Assembly (NCBI GenBank): GCA_016936815.1
Contig: JAFGXD010000029.1
Location: 482 to 64,481, forward strand
Source: Bacteroidales bacterium
GTDB taxonomy: Bacteria > Bacteroidota > Bacteroidia > Bacteroidales > GWF2-38-335
Length of the DNA stretch: 64,000 nt
Direction: 5' to 3'
Both the position numbers and the translations under genes were made by a program. Shown piece by piece: positions 26,734-41,999 of this stretch. How positions within the stretch are numbered: the stretch's first letter is position 1; each line of letters begins with the position of its first letter. Below the pieces are notes generated by a model. That model saw only the letters and a program-made list of their open reading frames with translations, had not been told where the DNA came from and ran no database searches.

Positions 26734-27042
26734 ATGAGAAAAATATTATTGTGCTAAATATGTGCGATATTTTCATTACTGTCTCCTTCGCAGGTGTTTT
26801 TAAAAGGTCAGTTTTTGGAATTAGGCATTCATTCATGTGGCTCATATGGAAGTGATGTTGCTGCTCCCCCCGATTTTCATCCAACAAACGGCAATTTGGG
26901 TTTTGTATATGATTATACGCTTGACGGATGGACAATAGGAACCCCTCCATTTATGGGAGATTATTTTGTTAGGTTTAACAATGGTAGTGAGCTAAATACT
27001 AAAAAGATTTTTAAAATTAACTTTAAGATTAACCTAAACTAG
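26734..27042 (+). pseudogene. Remnant of a secreted T9SS protein gene (premature stop and probable large internal deletion)
   Basis: ATG 26734 begins a signal-peptide-like stretch broken by in-frame TAA at 26755. The frame continues VFLKGQFLELGIHSCGSYG...GDYF directly into a CTD-like tail VRFNNGSELNTKKIFK. Confidence 0.6.
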
Positions 27043-27168
27043 AAGATTAAAAATTAAAAGAAAGTAGATAAAGCTATATTTTTTATTTATACTATTGAAT
27101 AATATTTTACAACACTTCTGTTGAAAAAACAATTATAATAACTATTTTTACATCAGAAAAATACTTTT

Positions 27169-27231
27169 ATGGTACACTGGATTCTTAACTTCATTATATG
27201 TATCAATCGTGCAGGGCTTTTTTGCTGTTAG
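27169..27231 (+). other. Possible 20-aa leader peptide (MVHWILNFIICINRAGLFCC)
   Basis: ATG 27169 to TAG 27231, ending 73 nt upstream of the ammonia-lyase start. Translation is unproven. Confidence 0.25.
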
Positions 27232-27298
27232 CTGTTAGCTCTTAGCTGAGGTAAATAAAACTCAAAACTCAAAACTCAAAACTTAAAACTTAAAACTT
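27224..27298. repeat. Two heptamer tandem arrays
   Basis: GCTGTTA-GCTGTTA-GCTCTTA-GCTG at 27224-27248, and (AAAACTC)3(AAAACTT)3 at 27257-27298. Confidence 0.92.
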
Positions 27299-27304
27299 AT
27301 AATA

Positions 27305-28843
27305 ATGGATACTTTAATTATAAAAGGTGCCGGATTAACAATTTATGATGTTGTTAATGTTGCAAGACACGGACAAAAAGTTGCTTTAGCTCCTGAAGCT
27401 GTTGAAAGAATTAATGTTTGTCGTGCAATGCTTGAAAAAAAGATTGTTGCAGGAGAAATAATGTACGGAGTAAACACCGGAATTGGTGAGTTTTCGGAAG
27501 TTGTTTTAAACGACGATCAAGTAAAAGATTTTCAAAAATATCTGGTATACAACCATGCTGCCGGTATTGGCGACCCTGCTCCAATTGAATATGTTCGCGG
27601 CGCTATGCTTGGTAGAATTAACGTGCATGCTCACGGAAATTCAGGTTGTAGAATTGAAATAACTCAAACTTTGGTCGATATGCTAAACAAAGGCGTAACA
27701 CCTTTTGTTTGTCAGAAAGGCTCTGTTGGAGCATGTGGAGATTTGGCACCAATGTCGCAAATTGCTCTTTTAATGATGGGTGAGGGAAAGGCATACTACA
27801 AAGGCGAATTACTTGAAGGAAAAGATGCTTTAGAAAAAGCAGGAATACCTGTTCCTGGATTAATGGCACGTGACGGGCTAGCTACAATTAACGGCTCTAA
27901 TGTGCTTACTGCTATGTCGGCAATATTTTTAGTTGACGCTAATAACTGGCTAAAACAAGCCGAAATAGCAGCCTCTATGTCGCTTGAGGCTCTTAAAGCA
28001 AATATGAAACCTTATACAAAATTACTTCATGAAGTTCGTGGTTTTAAAGGAGCTGTTCGTTCAGCCGAAGCAATTAATAAATGTGTTTCCGGTGGCGACC
28101 TTAAAGAGGGTAGAGTAAAATGTAAAGTTCAGGATGCTTATTCAATGCGTTCAACACCTCAGGTTATTGGTGCTGCTCACGATGCCTTGGCTTATGCTCG
28201 TTCTCAGGTAGAAATTGAACTTAACGGTGTTGGCGATAACCCAATTTTCTTCCCCGACAAAAATCTTCAACTGTCAGGAGCAAACTTCCAGGGTAGTCCT
28301 GTTGCTGTTCCTATGGACATGGCAGGTTATTGTATTACAATGGTTTCCGTTCTTTCAGAAAGAAGAATGAACAGACTTAACAATCCTGCTTTAAGTGTTG
28401 GTTTACCTGCATTTTTAACTAAAGGAGCCGGAATGTTTTCAGGCCTTATGCTTTCTCAGTACACTGCCGATATGATGATTGTTGAACAACGTATTCTTAG
28501 TGCGCCGGCTTCTGTTCAGTCAATTCCGGCCGCTGCCGATCAGGAAGATTTTGTTTCAATGGGAATGAATACTGCCATTAAAAACTTCCAGATTCTTGAT
28601 AATGCCTATGGTATTTTGGGTATTGAATATATGGCTGCAGCTCAGGCTTTAGATTTCAGAAAGGAAGAATACAGCTTCGGAAAAGGAGTTCAGGCTGCTA
28701 AAGATGTTATTAGGAAACATGTTGATTTTCTTGACATTGATAGACCTCTGTATCCTGACCATACTGCAATGAAAGAACTGGTTAAATCTTGTGAAATTCT
28801 TACTGCCGTTGAAAAAGCTGTTGGAAGTTTGGAAGAATATTAG
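27305..28843 (+). CDS. Histidine/aromatic amino acid ammonia-lyase family enzyme (MIO-type) with atypical Ala-Cys-Gly triad
   Basis: YGVNTG, GSVGACGDLAP, ING, VQDAYSMR..PQV, DNP, GANF and QEDFVSMG motifs. Confidence 0.92.
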   Translation: MDTLIIKGAGLTIYDVVNVARHGQKVALAPEAVERINVCRAMLEKKIVAGEIMYGVNTGIGEFSEVVLNDDQVKDFQKYLVYNHAAGIGDPAPIEYVRGAMLGRINVHAHGNSGCRIEITQTLVDMLNKGVTPFVCQKGSVGACGDLAPMSQIALLMMGEGKAYYKGELLEGKDALEKAGIPVPGLMARDGLATINGSNVLTAMSAIFLVDANNWLKQAEIAASMSLEALKANMKPYTKLLHEVRGFKGAVRSAEAINKCVSGGDLKEGRVKCKVQDAYSMRSTPQVIGAAHDALAYARSQVEIELNGVGDNPIFFPDKNLQLSGANFQGSPVAVPMDMAGYCITMVSVLSERRMNRLNNPALSVGLPAFLTKGAGMFSGLMLSQYTADMMIVEQRILSAPASVQSIPAAADQEDFVSMGMNTAIKNFQILDNAYGILGIEYMAAAQALDFRKEEYSFGKGVQAAKDVIRKHVDFLDIDRPLYPDHTAMKELVKSCEILTAVEKAVGSLEEY

Positions 28844-28867: not shown

Positions 28868-28896
28868 AGGGATGGCTTAGGCTATTCCTTTTTTTT
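28868..28896 (+). terminator. Rho-independent terminator
   Basis: AGGGATGGC...GCTATTCCT stem (with G-U pairs) followed by a T run. Confidence 0.7.
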
Positions 28897-33206: not shown

Positions 33207-33214
33207 TATCTTTG
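33207..33214 (+). promoter_or_regulatory. -7 box TATCTTTG for the glycogen operon
   Basis: TAnnTTTG consensus 30 nt upstream of ATG 33245. Confidence 0.6.
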
Positions 33215-33244
33215 CACTTCAATTCCGGAAAACTTCTAAATTGT

Positions 33245-35206
33245 ATGACTTACATAAAATTTGATAAAACCAAACTCATTAACCTAGAGTATTCACTTAA
33301 CAAAGAGCTTATTCGCTCAAATCGCGCAGGATCTTATGCAAGCACAACTGTTATTGGTGCAAACACAAGAAAATACCATGGCTTGCTAATATGTCCAATG
33401 GAAGATATTGATGGTGAAAACCATGTTTTGCTCTCATCTTTGGATATTTCAGTTCACCAACAAGGTGCCGCTTTTAATCTGGGAGTAAGGAAATACCCGG
33501 GAATTTATGAGCCAAAAGGGCATAAATATATACGGGATTTTTCTACTGAACCAATTCCTCATCAGATTTTTCGTGTTGGAGGTGTGGTTCTTAGGAGAGA
33601 AAACCTTTTGGTTGAGGAAGACGATAGAATCCTTATTAAGATAACTTTGCTTGAAGCTCATTCTCCCACAAAACTAACTTTTAAACCTTTTCTTGCCTTT
33701 AGAAAAGTACATGCTCTTTCAAAGGCAAATATGTTTGTTAATCGTAAATACAAATCGGTTGAAAATGGTATAAAAGTAAAGATGTACGACGGTTACAAGA
33801 GTCTTTTTATGCAATTTTCAAAAAAGGCAGAATATGTCCATGTGCCCGACTGGTACTATAATGTTGAATATATTGAAGAACAAAAAAGAGGATACGATTT
33901 CCGGGAAGACCTATTTGTGCCCGGTTATTTCGAGCTGCCCCTAAAAAAAGGGGAGTCTGTTGTTTTTTCTGCAGGACTTTCAGAAATAAATACTAAGACA
34001 ATTAGTAAGAAATTCGACTCCGAGGCAAAAAAACGTATTCCCAGAACAGGTTTTGAGAATTGCCTTGTAAATTCTGCACAACAGTTTATTGTAAAAAGAA
34101 ATAAGAAAACCGAAATAATTGCAGGTTTTCCATGGTTTGGCCGATGGGGAAGAGACACTTTTATTGCTCTCCCGGGGCTTACTCTTGCCCAAAATGATTT
34201 AAAAACTTGTAAAGGCGTTCTCGATACAATGTCGGCAGAAATTAAAGACGGATTATTCCCAAATATTGGTCATGGCGAACACTCTGTTCTTAACTCAGTT
34301 GATGCTCCTCTTTGGTATTTTTGGGCTTTGCAGCAATATCACGAACATATTGACGATAAAGAGCTTGTTTGGAAAGACTATGGTAAGAAAATGAAAGTTG
34401 TTCTTAATAAATTTAAGGAAGGAACTCATTTTAATATTAAGATGCACGATAATGGCCTTATTTGGTCTGGAGAACCCGGTCATGCCCTTACATGGATGGA
34501 TGCAGTTGTTCATGGCAGACCTGTTACACCGAGAATTGGCTTCGATGTGGAAATAAATGCTTTGTGGTACAATGCAGTATGCTTTACTCTTGAACTTGCA
34601 GAAAAAGCTGGCGATAAAAAGTTCGTTTCACAGTACAAAAACATTCCCAATTTAACAAAAACTTCATTCGTTGAAATGTTCTGGGATGAAAAGAAGAAAT
34701 ATCTTGCAGATTACGCTACTTATGAAGCAAAGGATTGGTCAATTAGACCTAACCAGATTTTTGCAACTTCCCTTCCTTATTCTCCGATAAATGTTGATAT
34801 TGCCGATTCTGTTTTGGAAACAGTAAGACAGGTTCTTCTTACTACAAAGGGTTTAAGAACACTTTCTCCTAGTCACCCCGATTATATTGGAAGATACGAG
34901 GGTTCTCAGGAACAGCGAGATAATGCATACCATCAAGGAACTGTTTGGCCATGGTTGCTAGGTCATTTTGCCGAAGGTATTCTCAAAATTCATGGAAAAA
35001 GCAGATTAGCTTTTGTTCAAAAACTTATTTCAAGTTTCGAGGAAGATATGTCTATGCACGGCATTGGATCAATTTCTGAGGTTTACGATGGTGATCCTCC
35101 TCATAACCCCAATGGAGCTATCTCACAAGCTTGGTCGGTGGCCGAAGTCTTAAGAATGATAAGACTTACAGAAAAATATAAAACTAAATGCGATTCAAAT
35201 AATTAA
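33245..35206 (+). CDS. Glycogen debranching enzyme (amylo-alpha-1,6-glucosidase, GH133-like)
   Basis: TRKYHGLL, AGFPWFGRWGRDTFI, TWMDA, YHQGTVWPW and SQAWSVAE motifs. Confidence 0.93.
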   Translation: MTYIKFDKTKLINLEYSLNKELIRSNRAGSYASTTVIGANTRKYHGLLICPMEDIDGENHVLLSSLDISVHQQGAAFNLGVRKYPGIYEPKGHKYIRDFSTEPIPHQIFRVGGVVLRRENLLVEEDDRILIKITLLEAHSPTKLTFKPFLAFRKVHALSKANMFVNRKYKSVENGIKVKMYDGYKSLFMQFSKKAEYVHVPDWYYNVEYIEEQKRGYDFREDLFVPGYFELPLKKGESVVFSAGLSEINTKTISKKFDSEAKKRIPRTGFENCLVNSAQQFIVKRNKKTEIIAGFPWFGRWGRDTFIALPGLTLAQNDLKTCKGVLDTMSAEIKDGLFPNIGHGEHSVLNSVDAPLWYFWALQQYHEHIDDKELVWKDYGKKMKVVLNKFKEGTHFNIKMHDNGLIWSGEPGHALTWMDAVVHGRPVTPRIGFDVEINALWYNAVCFTLELAEKAGDKKFVSQYKNIPNLTKTSFVEMFWDEKKKYLADYATYEAKDWSIRPNQIFATSLPYSPINVDIADSVLETVRQVLLTTKGLRTLSPSHPDYIGRYEGSQEQRDNAYHQGTVWPWLLGHFAEGILKIHGKSRLAFVQKLISSFEEDMSMHGIGSISEVYDGDPPHNPNGAISQAWSVAEVLRMIRLTEKYKTKCDSNN

Positions 35207-35252
35207 AAATTAATAACTTGAATACAGAATTTCAATTAATAGGTATTGGTTT

Positions 35253-36533
35253 ATGAAGGTATTAATGTTCGGATGGGAGTTTCCTCCACATATTACCGGA
35301 GGATTGGGAACAGCTTGTTATGGGCTTTCTAAAGGGCTTGCAAAGCACAATGTGGAGATGATTTTTGTTGTTCCAAAATTATATGGCGATGAAGACCAAA
35401 GTCACCTTAAACTATCTGCTGCCGGCGATGTGTCGGTTACAGAAACTTTTCTCAATTACGAAGAGTTTTGGAAGAAAATTACTTATTTAGAAGTGGGATC
35501 TTCTCTTATACCCTACATGTCGCCTGAAGAATTTGCTATGATTTATGAGGGTAAAGAGCTTTCTCATCTGGATATAAAAAAGGAGGTATACCAGAAGAAT
35601 TTCTTTTTTTCAGGTACTTATGGAAAAAATTTATTACAAGAGGTCTCCAGATACGCCTTAATTGCTTCTGTAATCGCTAATAAAAATAGTTTTGATGTTA
35701 TTCACGCTCACGATTGGTTAACATATCCGGCAGGTATTGCTGCAAAAGAAGTTTCCGGTAAGCCTTTGGTTATTCATGTGCATGCAACAGAATTCGACCG
35801 TTCCGGAGAAAATGTTAACCAAAATGTTTATGATATAGAACGACGAGGAATGGAAGTTGCCGATAAAATTATTACTGTTAGCAACCTAACTCGTCAGATT
35901 GTTATTGAAAGATACGGCATTAATCCCAATAAAATTACAACCGTTCATAATGCTGTTGAACCGGTTGATATTATTAAAACGCCTCAATATCCTAAAGGAG
36001 TTAAGGAAAAAATTGTAACTTTCTTGGGAAGAATAACTTTTCAAAAAGGCCCCGACTATTTTGTTGAAGCCGCTTATAAAGTTCTTCAAAAAGACCCAAA
36101 TGTTCGTTTCGTTATGGCTGGTTCGGGAGATATGACAAACAGAATGATAAAAAGGGTGGCTGCTCTAGGAATTGCTTCACGTTTTCATTTTGCAGGCTTT
36201 CTTAAAGGACAGGAAGTAATTGAAATGTTTAATATGTCGGATGTGTATGTAATGCCTTCTGTGTCAGAGCCTTTTGGCATCTCGCCTCTGGAAGCTATGA
36301 GAAGTAATGTTCCGGTAATTATTAGTAAACAATCCGGTGTTTCAGAAATTTTAAGACATGCTCTTAAAGTAGATTTTTGGGATATTGATGATCTTTCAGA
36401 TGCTATTTATGGTATGCTTAATTATGAGAGTCTTGGTGAAATGTTTAAGAAATTTGGTAAAGACGAGGTAGATAACCTTAAATGGGAAAATGCTGCAATT
36501 AAAGTTAAAGAAGTTTATAAATCTGTTGTTTAG
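35253..36533 (+). CDS. GT4 glycosyltransferase (putative glycogen synthase)
   Basis: GWEFPPHITGGLG, HAHDW and PSVSEPFGISPLEA motifs; operon context. Confidence 0.9.
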   Translation: MKVLMFGWEFPPHITGGLGTACYGLSKGLAKHNVEMIFVVPKLYGDEDQSHLKLSAAGDVSVTETFLNYEEFWKKITYLEVGSSLIPYMSPEEFAMIYEGKELSHLDIKKEVYQKNFFFSGTYGKNLLQEVSRYALIASVIANKNSFDVIHAHDWLTYPAGIAAKEVSGKPLVIHVHATEFDRSGENVNQNVYDIERRGMEVADKIITVSNLTRQIVIERYGINPNKITTVHNAVEPVDIIKTPQYPKGVKEKIVTFLGRITFQKGPDYFVEAAYKVLQKDPNVRFVMAGSGDMTNRMIKRVAALGIASRFHFAGFLKGQEVIEMFNMSDVYVMPSVSEPFGISPLEAMRSNVPVIISKQSGVSEILRHALKVDFWDIDDLSDAIYGMLNYESLGEMFKKFGKDEVDNLKWENAAIKVKEVYKSVV

Positions 36534-36542
36534 ATATTTGTT

Positions 36543-37730
36543 ATGCGAAAAATTTGTTTTTATTTTCAGGTTCATCAGCCGTTTAGGTTGAAAAGATATA
36601 GATTTTTTGATATTGGTAACGATCCATATTATTTCGACGAACACGCAAACCGTTCAATTATGAAAAAGGTTGCTGAAAAATGCTACCTTCCAACAAATCA
36701 GGTCTTTTTGGATTTGATAAAGATATACGGCTCAAGGTTTAAAATTTCTTATTCCATTTCAGGAGTGGCTCTCGATCAGTTTGAAATGTATGCTCCTGAA
36801 GTGCTTGAAAGTTTTAAGAGATTGGCTGAAACAGGAAATGTTGAGTTTTTGGCTGAGACCTATTCTCACTCACTTTCTGCTCTAAAAAGCCGAGAGGAAT
36901 TCGAACGTCAGGTTAAAGCTCAGTCACAAAAGATTGAACAATTCTTTGGTCAAAAACCTAAGGTGTTTAGAAATACTGAGTTAATATATTCCGACGAAAT
37001 TGGAGAAATGGTTGCAGATATGGGCTATGAAGCTATGCTTACCGAAGGTGCTAAGCATGTTTTGGGATGGAAAAGTCCAAATTATGTCTACTGTAATGCA
37101 ATAAACCCAAAACTAAAACTCTTATTGAAAAACTTTACCTTAAGCGACGATATTGCTTTTCGTTTTTCTAACAGAGCTTGGGAAGCATGGCCATTAACCG
37201 CTGATAAATTTGTGGATTGGCTTAATGCCATTGATCCAAAACAGGAAATAATAAATCTGTTTATGGATTATGAGACTTTTGGGGAACATCAATGGGCTGA
37301 AACAGGTATTTTTGAATTTTTGAAAGCATTACCTGATCAAGTTTTTGGAAAATCTAACTTTGGTTTTGCAACACCATCAGAAATAATAAAAACTTTTGAC
37401 CCGGTAGGTGCAGTTCATGTTCCTTATCCAATTTCATGGGCCGATGAGGAAAGAGACTTAACAGCATGGCTTGGAAATGAACTTCAAGACGAGGCTTTCA
37501 ATAATTTGTATTCATTTTACGAAAAAGTTAAGAAATGTGGAAACCCGGAGTTGGAGAAAGTTTGGACCTACCTTCAAACTTCCGACCATTTTTACTATAT
37601 GTGTACTAAGTGGTTTTCCGATGGCGATGTACATAAATATTTTAATCCTTATGATAGTCCTTACGAGGCTTTCATTAATTTTATGAATGTATTAAGCGAT
37701 TTTGTGATTAGACTCGATGAATGTAAATAG
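36543..37730 (+). CDS. Glycoside hydrolase family 57 (alpha-amylase-like)
   Basis: HQP, ETYSHSL, FRNTEL, FMDYETFGEHQ and SDHFYYM motifs. Confidence 0.93.
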   Translation: MRKICFYFQVHQPFRLKRYRFFDIGNDPYYFDEHANRSIMKKVAEKCYLPTNQVFLDLIKIYGSRFKISYSISGVALDQFEMYAPEVLESFKRLAETGNVEFLAETYSHSLSALKSREEFERQVKAQSQKIEQFFGQKPKVFRNTELIYSDEIGEMVADMGYEAMLTEGAKHVLGWKSPNYVYCNAINPKLKLLLKNFTLSDDIAFRFSNRAWEAWPLTADKFVDWLNAIDPKQEIINLFMDYETFGEHQWAETGIFEFLKALPDQVFGKSNFGFATPSEIIKTFDPVGAVHVPYPISWADEERDLTAWLGNELQDEAFNNLYSFYEKVKKCGNPELEKVWTYLQTSDHFYYMCTKWFSDGDVHKYFNPYDSPYEAFINFMNVLSDFVIRLDECK

Positions 37731-37760
37731 TAGATATTTAAAAGATTACATTAACTATAT

Positions 37761-40700
37761 ATGACAAAAACAAATCAAATGCTTCCAGATGCGCTTTTTG
37801 AGGTTAGCTGGGAAGTTTGTAACAAAGTTGGCGGTATTCATACTGTTATTTCAACAAAAGCAATTGCTCTTAAAGAAAAAGTAAAAAAGAAACATATATT
37901 TATTGGTCCAGATGTTTGGCGCGATACAAAAGAGAATCCGGAGTTTAAGGAAGATGAGAATATTCTTGCTGCTTGGAAAAATAAAGCAATGGAGGAAGGG
38001 CTTGCAATTAGAATAGGGCATTGGAATATTCCCGGAAATCCAATGGTTATTACTGTAGATTTTTCTTCCTTTATTAGTCAGAAAGATGAAATTTTTGCTA
38101 GATTCTGGGAAAAATATAAACTAGATTCCCTTTCAGGTCAATGGGATTATATTGAACCAATGCTTTTTGGATACGCTGCTGCAAGAGTAATTGAAAGTTA
38201 TTCAAGATTTAATCTTTCTCCAAACGATTGCATTATTGCACAGTTTCATGAATGGATGACAGGTTCCGGAATTCTTTATTTAAAGGAAAGTATGCCTCAA
38301 ATTGGCACAGTATTTACTACACATGCCACTGTTCTTGGTCGCTGCCTTGCCGGAAATGGAATGCCTTTGTACGACAAATTACCGGATTATAATGGAGAAT
38401 TTATTGCCAGAGATCTTGGTGTGGTTGCAAAATATTCTTTAGAGAAAATCTCAGGTGAACAAGCTGATGTTTTTACAACAGTTAGTGATATTACAGCCAA
38501 TGAATGCAAGTTTTTATTAGATAAAGAAGTGGATTTGGTTACTCCAAATGGTTTTGAGAATTCTTTTGTGCCTGAAGCCGGTGAATTCGAGAAAAAAGCA
38601 TCCGAGGCTAGAAAACTACTCATGAAAGTTGCCTCTGCTCTTACGGGTAACGAAATTTCTAAAGATGCTGTTATTTTAGGAACTTCCGGACGCTATGAAT
38701 TTACAAATAAAGGATACGATTTGTTTATTGATGCTTTGGGTAGTTTAAATAAAAATGAAAATCTTGAAAAAGAGATTCTTGCATTTATTTTAGTGCCTGC
38801 AAATAATTATGGACCAAGAAAACAATTGGTAAATAAACTTGCCGATTGTGGAAACACCGATCAAATTGAAGGTAATGTTCTTACTCATAATCTTCATGAT
38901 GCCGATTATGACCCAATTTTAAACAGAATTAGAGATAAAGGTCTGTTTAATAAGCTAAACGATAAAGTAAAAGTAATATTTGTGCCAAGTTACCTTAATG
39001 GCGATGATGGAATTTTTGACCTAAAATATTGGGATTTATTAATCGGCTTAGATTTAACAGTTTTTGCATCATATTACGAACCATGGGGTTACACTCCTTT
39101 GGAAAGTGTTGCTTTTGGTGTTCCAACAATAACAACAACTTTGGCAGGTTTTGGCAAATGGATGCAAAAGGAACTTGGCGAAAATCATGATGCTGTTTTC
39201 GTAATAAATAGAACAGATTCAAATGCAGGCGAGGTTGTTAATGCTATAGCCGACAAAATCCTGAAATGCTCAAAAAGACCATTAATAGACAAAATAAAAA
39301 TAAATGAATTGGCAAAAACAGCCGGATCCCATGCCTTATGGGTAAATCTTGTCGATTATTATATTAAAGCATATCATTTGGCTCTTGAAAAAGTTTCAGA
39401 AAGGAAAAGTATTTTTGCGCCTATACCTTTACTTACTGCCGAACAGAAAATAATTCCTTCAAATACTAATATTCCAAATTGGAGGAAAGTAGAGGTTTTA
39501 ACCTCACTTCCTGAATGTTTTGCCGGATTAAATGAAATTGCTCGAAACCTTTGGTGGTGCTGGAGTTTTAATGCAATGGATCTTTTCAAATTAATTGATA
39601 TCGACCTATGGCGAGAAAAAAAATATAACCCAATTGCATTTCTTGAAGATTTACCGGCTATAAGACTTAAAGAACTTGAAACAGACGATATTTTTGTTTC
39701 AAAATACAACGAGGTTTACTCTGAGTATAAGGCTTATATGCAGGAAAAGCAAAATAAAAAGTCTCCCAAAATAGCCTATTTCTCAATGGAATACGGAATG
39801 CACGATAATGTGAAAATTTTTTCCGGAGGATTGGGAATACTTGCCGGAGATTATCTTAAAGAGGCTAGCGACCAGAATGTTGATATGGTTGGTGTAGGGC
39901 TTCTTTACAGATATGGCTATTTTAAGCAAACACTTACAGTTAACGGCGAACAGCAAACTACTCTTATCCCACAGGATTTTACTAAAATGCCTTTGGAACC
40001 TTTAAGAGATAAAGATGGTAATATTCTAATTGTAAATGTGAAATTTCCCGGACGAAATGTATATATTAAAGTATGGAAACTACTTGTTGGAAGAATTGAT
40101 CTTCTGCTTCTGGATACCGACCACGATTTGAATCAGGAGGCAGATAGGAAAATTTCTCATCAACTTTACGGAGGTGGAAACGAAAATCGTTTTATGCAAG
40201 AAATGGTTCTTGGAATTGGAGGAATTAGGGTATTATCGGCTTTAGATATTAGACCGGATGTTTATCATTGTAACGAAGGACATGCTGCTTTTATTGGCCT
40301 TGAACGTCTTAGAATGCTTAGGACTAAAAGAAATCTTAAATTTAATGAAGCACTTGAAATTATTAGAGCTTCAACATTGTTTACTACTCATACTCCCGTA
40401 CCGGCCGGTCACGATATGTTCGAAGAAGATTTAATGAGAATATACATGGCGCACTATCCTGAACGCCTTAAAATTACTTGGGAAGAAATGATGAGCTTGG
40501 GGAAACTTCACCCCGGTGATAAATTTTCAATGAGTAATTTAGCAGTGCATGTTTCTCAGGAAGTTAATGGTGTTAGCTGGCTTCATGGAGAAGTTTCAAA
40601 AGAAATGTTTACAGACCTTTGGCCCGGTTATTTCCCCGAAGAAAGTCCTATCGGATTTGTTACCAATGGGGTTCATTTCGATACTTGGACTGCAAAAGCA

Positions 40701-41999
40701 TGGAAACTTCTTTATTTAAAAGAATTTGGAGAAGGATTTAAACAAAATCTTTCTGATACAAATTATTGGAAAAAAATATATAATGTGCCCGATGAAACTA
40801 TTTGGGATATAAGACTTTATCAAAGATTTAAGCTTATTGAATATGTAAGAAATCGTGTGAGAAGAAATTGGGTTAGGCGCTACGAAAACCCAAAAAATAT
40901 TGTAGAAGTAATAAATAATATTGATGAAAATGCCTTAACCATTGGTTTTGCAAGACGTTTTGCTACCTATAAACGTGCTCATCTACTTTTTAGAAATATT
41001 GACCGATTATCGGCAATTCTTAATAATCCAAATAAACCTGTTCAGATAATTTTTGCCGGAAAAGCACATCCTAACGATAAAGCCGGTCAGGATTTAATAA
41101 AATATATTGTTGAAATTTCAAAAAGACCAGACTTTTTGGGAAAAATTGTTTTTCTTGAAAATTACGATATAGAGCTTGCGAGAAAAATGGTGCAAGGTGT
41201 TGATATTTGGATGAATACCCCAACAAGACCACTTGAGGCATCAGGTACCTCAGGAATGAAAGCCGTTATGAATGGAGCATTACATTTTTCTGTTCTCGAT
41301 GGTTGGTGGGTTGAAGGGTACATGAAAGAAGCCGGCTGGGCATTACCGGAAGAAAGAACTTACGAAAATCAGGATTTTCAAGACGAACTTGATGCGGAAA
41401 CAATTTATTCAATGCTTGAAAATGAAATAGTACCTCTTTATTATAAACGCAATGAAAAAGGAATTCCAACAGACTGGGTGAAATTTGTAAAAAATAGTAT
41501 TGCCAACGTAGCACCAAAATTTACAACCAAAAGAATGATGGATGATTATTACTCCAGATTTTATAATAAGTTGTATACTAGATCATTGGAAATGAAAAAG
41601 AATGATTATCAAATGGCTATTGAAATTGCTTCATGGAAAGAATCCATGAAAGAAAAATGGAGCCGGTTGGAAGTTGTTTCTGTGGAAATTCCCGATTACG
41701 AGAAAAATCCTATAAAACTTACAGAAAACTATAGAGGAGAAATTAAAATTAATTTAAATGATATTTCTTCCGAAGAGATTGGTGTAGAATTAGTTGTTGC
41801 CGACAAGGTTACCGATGGAAATGTGAGGCTGTTTAGTAAGTATTCGGCTGAACTAAAAGGTATTGAAGGAACAATTGCAAGTTATTTTATTGAACGTAAC
41901 CCAATGAAACCGGGTACTTTTAATTATTCAATAAGAATATTTGCCAAAAATAGTTTATTACCTTATCAACAAGATTTCCCATTAATAAAATGGGTGTAA
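37761..41999 (+). CDS. glgP: Fusion of GT3 glycogen synthase-like domain and GT35 alpha-glucan phosphorylase
   Basis: N-terminal EVSWEVCNKVGGIHTV and SYYEPWGYTPLE; C-terminal YFSMEYG, GGLGILAGD, ARRFATYKR and EASGTSGMK. Confidence 0.93.
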   Translation: MTKTNQMLPDALFEVSWEVCNKVGGIHTVISTKAIALKEKVKKKHIFIGPDVWRDTKENPEFKEDENILAAWKNKAMEEGLAIRIGHWNIPGNPMVITVDFSSFISQKDEIFARFWEKYKLDSLSGQWDYIEPMLFGYAAARVIESYSRFNLSPNDCIIAQFHEWMTGSGILYLKESMPQIGTVFTTHATVLGRCLAGNGMPLYDKLPDYNGEFIARDLGVVAKYSLEKISGEQADVFTTVSDITANECKFLLDKEVDLVTPNGFENSFVPEAGEFEKKASEARKLLMKVASALTGNEISKDAVILGTSGRYEFTNKGYDLFIDALGSLNKNENLEKEILAFILVPANNYGPRKQLVNKLADCGNTDQIEGNVLTHNLHDADYDPILNRIRDKGLFNKLNDKVKVIFVPSYLNGDDGIFDLKYWDLLIGLDLTVFASYYEPWGYTPLESVAFGVPTITTTLAGFGKWMQKELGENHDAVFVINRTDSNAGEVVNAIADKILKCSKRPLIDKIKINELAKTAGSHALWVNLVDYYIKAYHLALEKVSERKSIFAPIPLLTAEQKIIPSNTNIPNWRKVEVLTSLPECFAGLNEIARNLWWCWSFNAMDLFKLIDIDLWREKKYNPIAFLEDLPAIRLKELETDDIFVSKYNEVYSEYKAYMQEKQNKKSPKIAYFSMEYGMHDNVKIFSGGLGILAGDYLKEASDQNVDMVGVGLLYRYGYFKQTLTVNGEQQTTLIPQDFTKMPLEPLRDKDGNILIVNVKFPGRNVYIKVWKLLVGRIDLLLLDTDHDLNQEADRKISHQLYGGGNENRFMQEMVLGIGGIRVLSALDIRPDVYHCNEGHAAFIGLERLRMLRTKRNLKFNEALEIIRASTLFTTHTPVPAGHDMFEEDLMRIYMAHYPERLKITWEEMMSLGKLHPGDKFSMSNLAVHVSQEVNGVSWLHGEVSKEMFTDLWPGYFPEESPIGFVTNGVHFDTWTAKAWKLLYLKEFGEGFKQNLSDTNYWKKIYNVPDETIWDIRLYQRFKLIEYVRNRVRRNWVRRYENPKNIVEVINNIDENALTIGFARRFATYKRAHLLFRNIDRLSAILNNPNKPVQIIFAGKAHPNDKAGQDLIKYIVEISKRPDFLGKIVFLENYDIELARKMVQGVDIWMNTPTRPLEASGTSGMKAVMNGALHFSVLDGWWVEGYMKEAGWALPEERTYENQDFQDELDAETIYSMLENEIVPLYYKRNEKGIPTDWVKFVKNSIANVAPKFTTKRMMDDYYSRFYNKLYTRSLEMKKNDYQMAIEIASWKESMKEKWSRLEVVSVEIPDYEKNPIKLTENYRGEIKINLNDISSEEIGVELVVADKVTDGNVRLFSKYSAELKGIEGTIASYFIERNPMKPGTFNYSIRIFAKNSLLPYQQDFPLIKWV

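Follow-up and report, generated by a model that had tools for sequence, protein, structure and literature searches.

Can an ammonia-lyase of the MIO family carry cysteine at the site where its cofactor is made, and if so, what does such an enzyme act on and how is its gene controlled? In the textbook precursor triad, from which the cofactor makes itself, Ser holds the position that Cys occupies in one gene of the window, by which we mean the whole stretch of DNA analysed (64,000 nt from a contig of a Bacteroidales bacterium). The gene and its landmarks are:

27305..28843, + strand: open reading frame for a MIO-family ammonia-lyase (PF00221), 512 aa, uninterrupted, of a subfamily with NTGIG, YNH, NFQG and DQEDF; likely a histidine ammonia-lyase
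27731..27739, + strand: cofactor-precursor triad Ala143-Cys144-Gly145, GCA TGT GGA, within GSVGACGDLAP
28868..28889, + strand: intrinsic-terminator-like hairpin and then a U run (9 pairs, 4 of them G-C, tail TTTTTTT); a consensus match only

The original prediction described the gene itself accurately. GCA-TGT-GGA at 27731-27739 encodes the Ala-Cys-Gly triad, the motifs YNHAAG, NTGIG, QEDFVSM, MYGVNTG and QDAYSMR all read as claimed, the unbroken frame shows no decay, and the terminator credited to the gene corresponds, by consensus match, to the hairpin and U run at 28868-28889. No hut gene adjoins it, as had been said; it is flanked by a 372-aa ORF that runs on the opposite strand and by the gene of a 1320-aa T9SS-sorted propeller protein, neither of them hut-related. 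A Logan contig is identical to window positions 27269-28567 (0 differences), from a run that may be the source sample and thus not independent; the leader bases described below lie outside the listed contigs. Elsewhere in the window, positions 33212-41999 hold a glycogen-metabolism-like cluster, judged from translations, whose products we take to be a debranching-type enzyme, a glycosyltransferase, a GH57-type enzyme and a 1412-aa synthase/phosphorylase-like fusion.

The lyase matches the PF00221 profile over the full model length with 523 bits, which exceeds the cut-off. Its nearest solved relatives by sequence are the HALs of Thermoplasma acidophilum and Pseudomonas putida, and its AlphaFold model (pLDDT 94) has P. 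putida HAL as top Foldseek match. The fold is thus that of HutH (EC 4.3.1.3; P. putida HAL 1b8f and 1gkm, T. acidophilum HAL 7tqr; TM 0.93-0.94), at only ~33-34% identity.

In alignment, A143-C144-G145 falls on A142-S143-G144 of P. putida HAL. The ACG triad recurs in 44 of the 120 nearest proteins, which are 86-100% identical (the other 76 have ASG), and at 59 of 81 genome loci, where two Cys codons are used (TGC 34, TGT 25); the 22 ASG loci use both Ser codon families. This rules out a sequencing error or a private mutation, each of which the original prediction had entertained. NTGIG, YNH and NFQG occur in all 120 closest proteins, Ser members included, and DQEDFVSM in 119. In 76 of 221 order-level genomes we found a gene 73-100% identical to the query, the next relatives being at most 40% identical, and the triads of these 76 genomes divide into 49 ACG and 27 ASG. 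The Ser codons of the 27 ASG genomes comprise 15 TCN and 12 AGY, each one base off TGY. Codon 144 is a natural case of Cys bridging both Ser codon sets at a catalytic site.

Metagenomes were scanned with the pattern G-S-x-G-A-C-G-D-L-x-P, which gave 120 loci, 116 of them with a lyase ORF. Most of these ACG lyases (106) belong to the same subfamily, and 10 come from other lineages; the seven full-length sequences among the outsiders take three separate tree positions among ASG enzymes, so Cys arose more than once. The 10 outside loci, at 33-43% identity, are L149 and L263; L175, L188, L195 and L261; and L173, L197, L220 and L249. Searches seeded with deep ACG members, which are biased to Cys through kinship, returned 110 ACG and 10 ASG in one case and 118 ACG in the other, with two unparsed sequences that proved to be Cys once aligned.

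A set of 430 subfamily sequences, not selected by triad, has Cys at position 144 in 319 members and Ser in 111, with no other residue; positions 140-143, 145 and 147 are invariant. On a tree of these sequences, built with the triad column left out of the alignment, Cys and Ser exchanged at least 31 times, against a mean of 98 when the states were shuffled, and a Cys/Ser pair can be up to 97% identical. The subfamily forms a single long-stemmed group in both trees (node support 0.95 and 0.26). The first tree, skewed by the ACG scan, places Cys at the root; the second leaves the root state ambiguous. The searches made undersample the breadth of the subfamily. Its named hosts include Bacteroidota, Elusimicrobiota, WOR-3, Aminicenantia, Delongbacteria, Myxococcota and Thermoplasmata, all named records being MAGs or candidate divisions, and the members listed for ten clusters comprise no named cultured isolate.

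Of the clade of ACG enzymes that the original prediction proposed, the distinct group survives and its restriction to Cys does not: 76 of the 120 closest proteins are ASG and share the signatures, and Cys and Ser members are interleaved by those 31 or more exchanges. Judged by its sequences, the subfamily is distinct, HAL-like and long-stemmed, with the hallmarks NTGIG, Y[NS]H, NFQG and DQEDFVSM. At the active-site positions examined, Cys and Ser groups are identical, i.e. there is no compensating change there. The columns best associated with the Cys/Ser state are 238, 24 and 223, by a statistic that ignores kinship. Cysteines 39 and 136 of the window lyase are ~98% conserved across the subfamily.

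Does the Cys mature? Langer, Lieber and Retey reportedly found in 1994 that an engineered P. putida HAL, S143C, matured to a fully active enzyme; this has the same Ala-Cys-Gly precursor as the window lyase. The Cys of the subfamily, unlike the engineered one, is natural, is the commoner state in our sample and has been repeatedly exchanged with Ser. 10.64898/2026.04.22.720169 and PMC3903478 describe the ASG triad as strictly conserved, or as a requirement in every characterised ammonia-lyase, and the latter gives a >1000-fold activity loss for Ser143Ala in P. putida HAL. That literal X-Ser-Gly precursor is absent from the window lyase. A site that admits only Cys or Ser (430 of 430) amid invariant 140-143, 145 and 147 argues for selection of a β-eliminable side chain, and for this reason, together with the precedent of S143C, we infer that a Cys-derived MIO is the best account. 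The chain would fold, the Ala-Cys-Gly triad would cyclise, and Cys144 would shed H2S in place of water to leave an ordinary MIO. The mature enzyme is probably ordinary as well, and the chemical novelty modest as a result. Our literature search, which was thin on subscription journals, found no report on natural ACG lyases; the related literature compared includes PMC12054356.

The Cys might also never mature; the protein would then be a trimethylammonia-lyase that does without MIO, as the histidine-betaine and ergothionase enzymes do, and would likewise yield urocanate. Such lyases, without Ala-Ser-Gly, keep the His/Glu/Gln/Arg/Asn/Tyr set, and the histidine-betaine lyase forms urocanate (10.64898/2026.04.22.720169 and 10.1101/2025.08.13.670108). 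The window lyase shares with them (ergothionase 6s7j of Treponema denticola, histidine-betaine lyases of Shewanella) the fold, a histidine-type pocket and the lack of a literal ASG, and ergothionase is as close to its model as TM 0.94. We nevertheless consider this very improbable: a full ASG stands in 111 of the 430 members, which are scattered among the Cys members and up to 97% identical to them, and the subfamily, unlike the MIO-less lyases, retains A-[CS]-G-D-L under strict constraint (A-[CS]-G in all 430, within an invariant neighbourhood). Identity to them is 30%, the sequence lies nearer to HAL (E 1e-90) than to ergothionase (E 8e-64), and the gene shares a leader, described below, with canonical hutH. 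A histidase carrying a Cys-derived MIO is the reading that we hold with good confidence.

The substrate assignment begins with the active site. Compared with P. putida HAL, the window lyase keeps Y54, H84, D146, N196, Q276, Y279, R282, N312, F328, M382 and E414, and these 11 residues vary little or not at all over 215 subfamily rows, whether of Cys or of Ser members. They include, as in HutH, the catalytic Tyr pair, the His and Glu of the imidazole site, the carboxylate residues, and D146, F328 and M382. 10.1101/2025.08.13.670108 assigns imidazole binding to His and Glu, carboxylate binding to Gln, Arg and Asn, and the base to Tyr; by alignment, H84, E414, Q276, R282, N312 and Y54 are those HAL role residues. 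Specificity motifs given in PMC3903478 are SH for HAL, FL for PAL and HL or HQ for TAL. The window lyase has N83-H84 there, with the His kept and the Ser replaced; SH itself occurs in 117 of 120 deep-branch relatives. Unlike HutH, it has F59I, H330Q, N412D and H416F in the pocket region, common to essentially all members, and S82N, found in most; these five fixed differences suggest some functional shift.

On the hutH equivalog model TIGR01225 the lyase scores 502.5, below the cut-off of 539.15, which one deep-branch member of the subfamily passes (572), and it narrowly passes PRK09367 (525.7 vs 524). The enzyme would likely act as HutH while missing two literal features, the ASG triad and the TIGR01225 cut-off.

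The original prediction had favoured a substrate other than histidine and a maturation sensitive to redox state. In its fullest form this would make the ACG enzymes a Cys-specific clade that takes Phe, Tyr or Trp as substrate and whose maturation is redox-gated. The pocket changes are indeed hydrophobic and smaller, and Cys is fixed in one large branch (119 of 119, in one count); some database records of subfamily members are also auto-named 'phenylalanine ammonia-lyase'. Against it, His84 and Glu414 are retained, the motif is NH with neither FL nor HL, scores lie far under the PAL, TAL, TAM and PAM family cut-offs, and the hutU profile and common leader given below point to His. Nor are heme-copper oxidase genes scarcer in genomes with the Cys form. 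COX1-family matches above the cut-off occur in 27 of 49 Cys and 11 of 27 Ser genomes, and a strong short-frame match in 23 of 49 and 6 of 27, opposite to the expected direction, although such matches are a proxy only and mix heme-copper oxidases with NO reductases. Cys as a state of anaerobes only is not supported, and this reading as a whole is to us the least credible of all. A non-histidine substrate in general is unlikely.

The original prediction had also allowed for a separate canonical hutH in the same genome. None was found: the lyase is the sole PF00221 gene found there. The HutH partner genes hutU, hutI and ftcD are present, scattered over three other contigs, so the lack of hut neighbours, or of a hut operon as known for HutH, carries no weight. 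Among the 221 order-level genomes, hutU was found in 39 of 40 with a subfamily gene and no canonical hutH, 84 of 87 with canonical hutH only, 35 of 36 with both lyases and 4 of 58 with neither, a profile that overstates the case because related genomes are not independent. In 26 genomes no PF00221 gene other than that of the subfamily was matched; 25 of these have hutU and 17 the Cys form. Five further genomes, from other loci, all have hutU, and in three of them the ACG gene is the sole PF00221 match. Where a genome without canonical hutH has a second PF00221 copy, those copies that were fetched group with the FlxA-type TAL; one of them was profile-scored. By this presence and absence, the subfamily fills the hutH gap in genomes lacking canonical hutH. 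The tetramer would deaminate L-His to urocanate and ammonia, feeding HutU, HutI and FtcD.

Most subfamily neighbourhoods hold no hut gene. At locus L217, the ACG gene is followed by hutU and hutI on the same strand, and at L149, a separate ACG lineage, the order is hutH-hutI-ftcD-hutU, a full hut operon. The ACG gene is convergent with hutU at L051, L157, L162, L187 and L191, which form one tree cluster. L051 comes from a Thermoplasmatota archaeon, and the 81% identity of its protein to the query suggests transfer between domains. A search of the neighbourhoods for genes pointing to a different substrate turned up only hutU and canonical hutH as conserved neighbours, the other frequent ones being lineage synteny. 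The proposal of a different substrate is not supported, in view of the hut genes of the genome, the filled hutH gap, the L217 run and the leader in common with canonical hutH.

Both lyases occur in 36 of the 76 subfamily genomes, as direct neighbours in 10, and a tandem pair is found at 16 of 80 other genome loci. Canonical hutH is followed by the subfamily gene at L016, L028, L033, L037, L050, L052 and others. In the order-level genomes, tandem pairs include those of G105, G116, G225, G071, G051 and G061; the leader precedes the pair in G116, G225, G051 and G061 and lies between the genes in G105 and G071. Simple redundancy does not account well for this co-occurrence. The subfamily might instead make MIO and prefer an Nα-substituted histidine (e.g. 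N-methyl-His), or conditions unlike those of HutH, with urocanate still passing to HutU. This would suit the conserved pocket changes and the 36 genomes with both enzymes, often in tandem behind one leader, and the hutU link is equally explained by any route to urocanate. It would, however, leave the 26 genomes with a sole PF00221 match without a route for plain His, no conserved transporter or methyl-handling gene occurs among the neighbours, and a ring-methylated substrate would require a second hydratase, whereas nearly all order-level genomes have one hutU match. We judge it unlikely, and retain plain histidine as the likely substrate.

The control of the gene is the remaining part of the question. 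Upstream of the lyase we found:

27143..27150, + strand: predicted Bacteroidota sigma-A '-7' promoter box, TAnnTTT[GA], 26 nt before the leader ATG
27169..27231, + strand: 20-codon leader ORF, MVHWILNFIICINRAGLFCC, family consensus MxxWxLxFKIKINRTxLx; candidate regulatory or arrest peptide
27232..27304, + strand: spacer from leader stop to lyase start, 73 nt; candidate termination or translation-control zone

Farther 5′ of the promoter, the frame at 26734-27043 (+ strand) opens like a signal peptide, is interrupted by a stop at codon 8 and then stays open for ~95 codons more; it has the look of a secreted-protein gene in decay. Heptamer arrays at 27224-27297 (GCTGTTA x3.6, AAAACTC x5.9) run across the leader stop and occupy the spacer; comparable short repeats lie 3′ of the leader at L280, L009 and L279.

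A motif scan of the loci gave 69 distinct matches, of which 68 lie directly 5′ of a HAL-family gene, one from the subfamily in 56 cases and a canonical one in 12. Several features of these 68 leaders were not imposed by the motif: Trp ten codons before Arg (62), an ATG within five codons of the Trp (66), and a stop no more than two codons past the final Leu (54). The box TAnnTTT[GA], which we take to be the Bacteroidota sigma-A promoter consensus, lies 28-48 nt 5′ of the Trp codon in 55, against a mean of 4.3 and a maximum of 11 in shuffles. All six Arg, all six Leu and all three Ile codons are used, and single-base codon differences are synonymous in 8864 cases and non-synonymous in 3325, partly by construction of the motif. 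We infer that the leader is translated.

A DNA pattern for the leader matched at 41 places, spread over 39 of the 221 genomes, and nowhere when reversed; a HAL gene follows in 36 cases, and of the 5 other matches two have a stop. A leader profile gave 43 hits in 43 genomes, each 56-292 nt before a hutH-type gene: 27 of the subfamily, many of whose leaders belonged to the training set of the profile, and 16 canonical, 11 of these in genomes without the subfamily. The window's own genome has a single copy. Beyond the order, a search of 300 genomes from the phylum yielded nothing but partial matches at chance level, and the peptide matched no Pfam family at E up to 10, for which 20 aa is a weak query. 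That the leader is common to the subfamily and to canonical hutH is separate support for histidine. At many of the loci L037-L087 there is another ORF of ~20-25 codons, of the type 'KRTWATAILSARSMIIGAE', after a hisS-like gene and upstream of the lyase; Bacteroidales loci with this type mostly have no WxLxF leader.

Two other kinds of leader were considered and rejected. An RNA element in place of a peptide is not indicated by the fold of the window region (z 0.08), by Rfam, where the leader region gave chance-level hits only and none near the gathering score, or by the consensus structure of the 68 leaders, which was empty. A classical hisL-type attenuator does not fit leaders of which 21 of 68 contain His, with no His run, no conserved His and no consensus hairpins.

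TnaC (tryptophanase) and SpeFL (ornithine decarboxylase) are metabolite-sensing arrest peptides, and in tryptophanase control the ribosome stalled on TnaC blocks Rho-dependent termination. Like them, the leader is a short uORF whose protein sequence is conserved and which stands in cis ahead of a gene for amino-acid catabolism; a Trp is fixed before the stop, no terminator hairpin is conserved, and Rho is present in the genome. Unlike them, it has another consensus and no Pfam match, and it precedes hutH in Bacteroidales-order lineages. Transcription would start just 5′ of the leader. When the inducer (His or urocanate) is abundant, the nascent peptide would stall the ribosome near the R-x-G-L-stop end, and the stalled ribosome would block Rho-dependent termination in the pyrimidine-rich spacer, so that the lyase would be expressed. 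The first 60 nt after the stop average 35% U, 22% C and 14% G over the 68 leaders, a modest bias of C over G. It is likely that the leader switches lyase expression on when histidine is available; for the ribosome-stalling mechanism, the most speculative step, we see not quite an even chance.

A translated uORF that senses no metabolite, acting by translation coupling, as a reporter of translation rate or as a small lyase-binding protein, is possible if somewhat doubtful. The absence of both a His run and a conserved hairpin agrees with it, the alternating hydrophobic residues might form a strand for binding, and the spacer varies in length from about 56 to 292 nt. It sits less well with a leader that is always in cis, on the same strand and directly upstream (43 of 43), that precedes two enzyme classes only ~35% identical, and whose W, L, I, N and R keep a fixed spacing to the stop, as a peptide acting in the ribosomal tunnel would be expected to show. 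We prefer the stalling model, at the strength given above. In place of a leader ORF, HutH systems have HutC or HutP, and neither was found in the window's own genome (95% complete). Two RNA runs of the same study yielded only short pieces from other organisms for the lyase and leader, and the literature search, with its thin coverage of subscription journals, found no report of the leader.

The widespread natural Ala-Cys-Gly branch corrects the rule of a strict ASG, and its genes should neither be dismissed as cofactor-less nor be mis-named PAL; pairs of Cys and Ser enzymes 97% identical make the elimination step of MIO formation directly testable. To our knowledge, few metabolite-sensing arrest peptides have been described, and the leader, as far as comparison of sequences can tell, is the more novel part and matters more than the triad, which is a modest correction of the textbook. 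Taken whole, our tentative proposal is that in environmental lineages of the Bacteroidales order an undescribed arrest peptide, MxxWxLxFKIKINRTxL, senses His or urocanate and controls a natural lyase with a Cys-derived MIO. A histidine-responsive arrest peptide, if true, would add a new ligand, would explain hut control without HutC or HutP, and would offer a compact biosensor.
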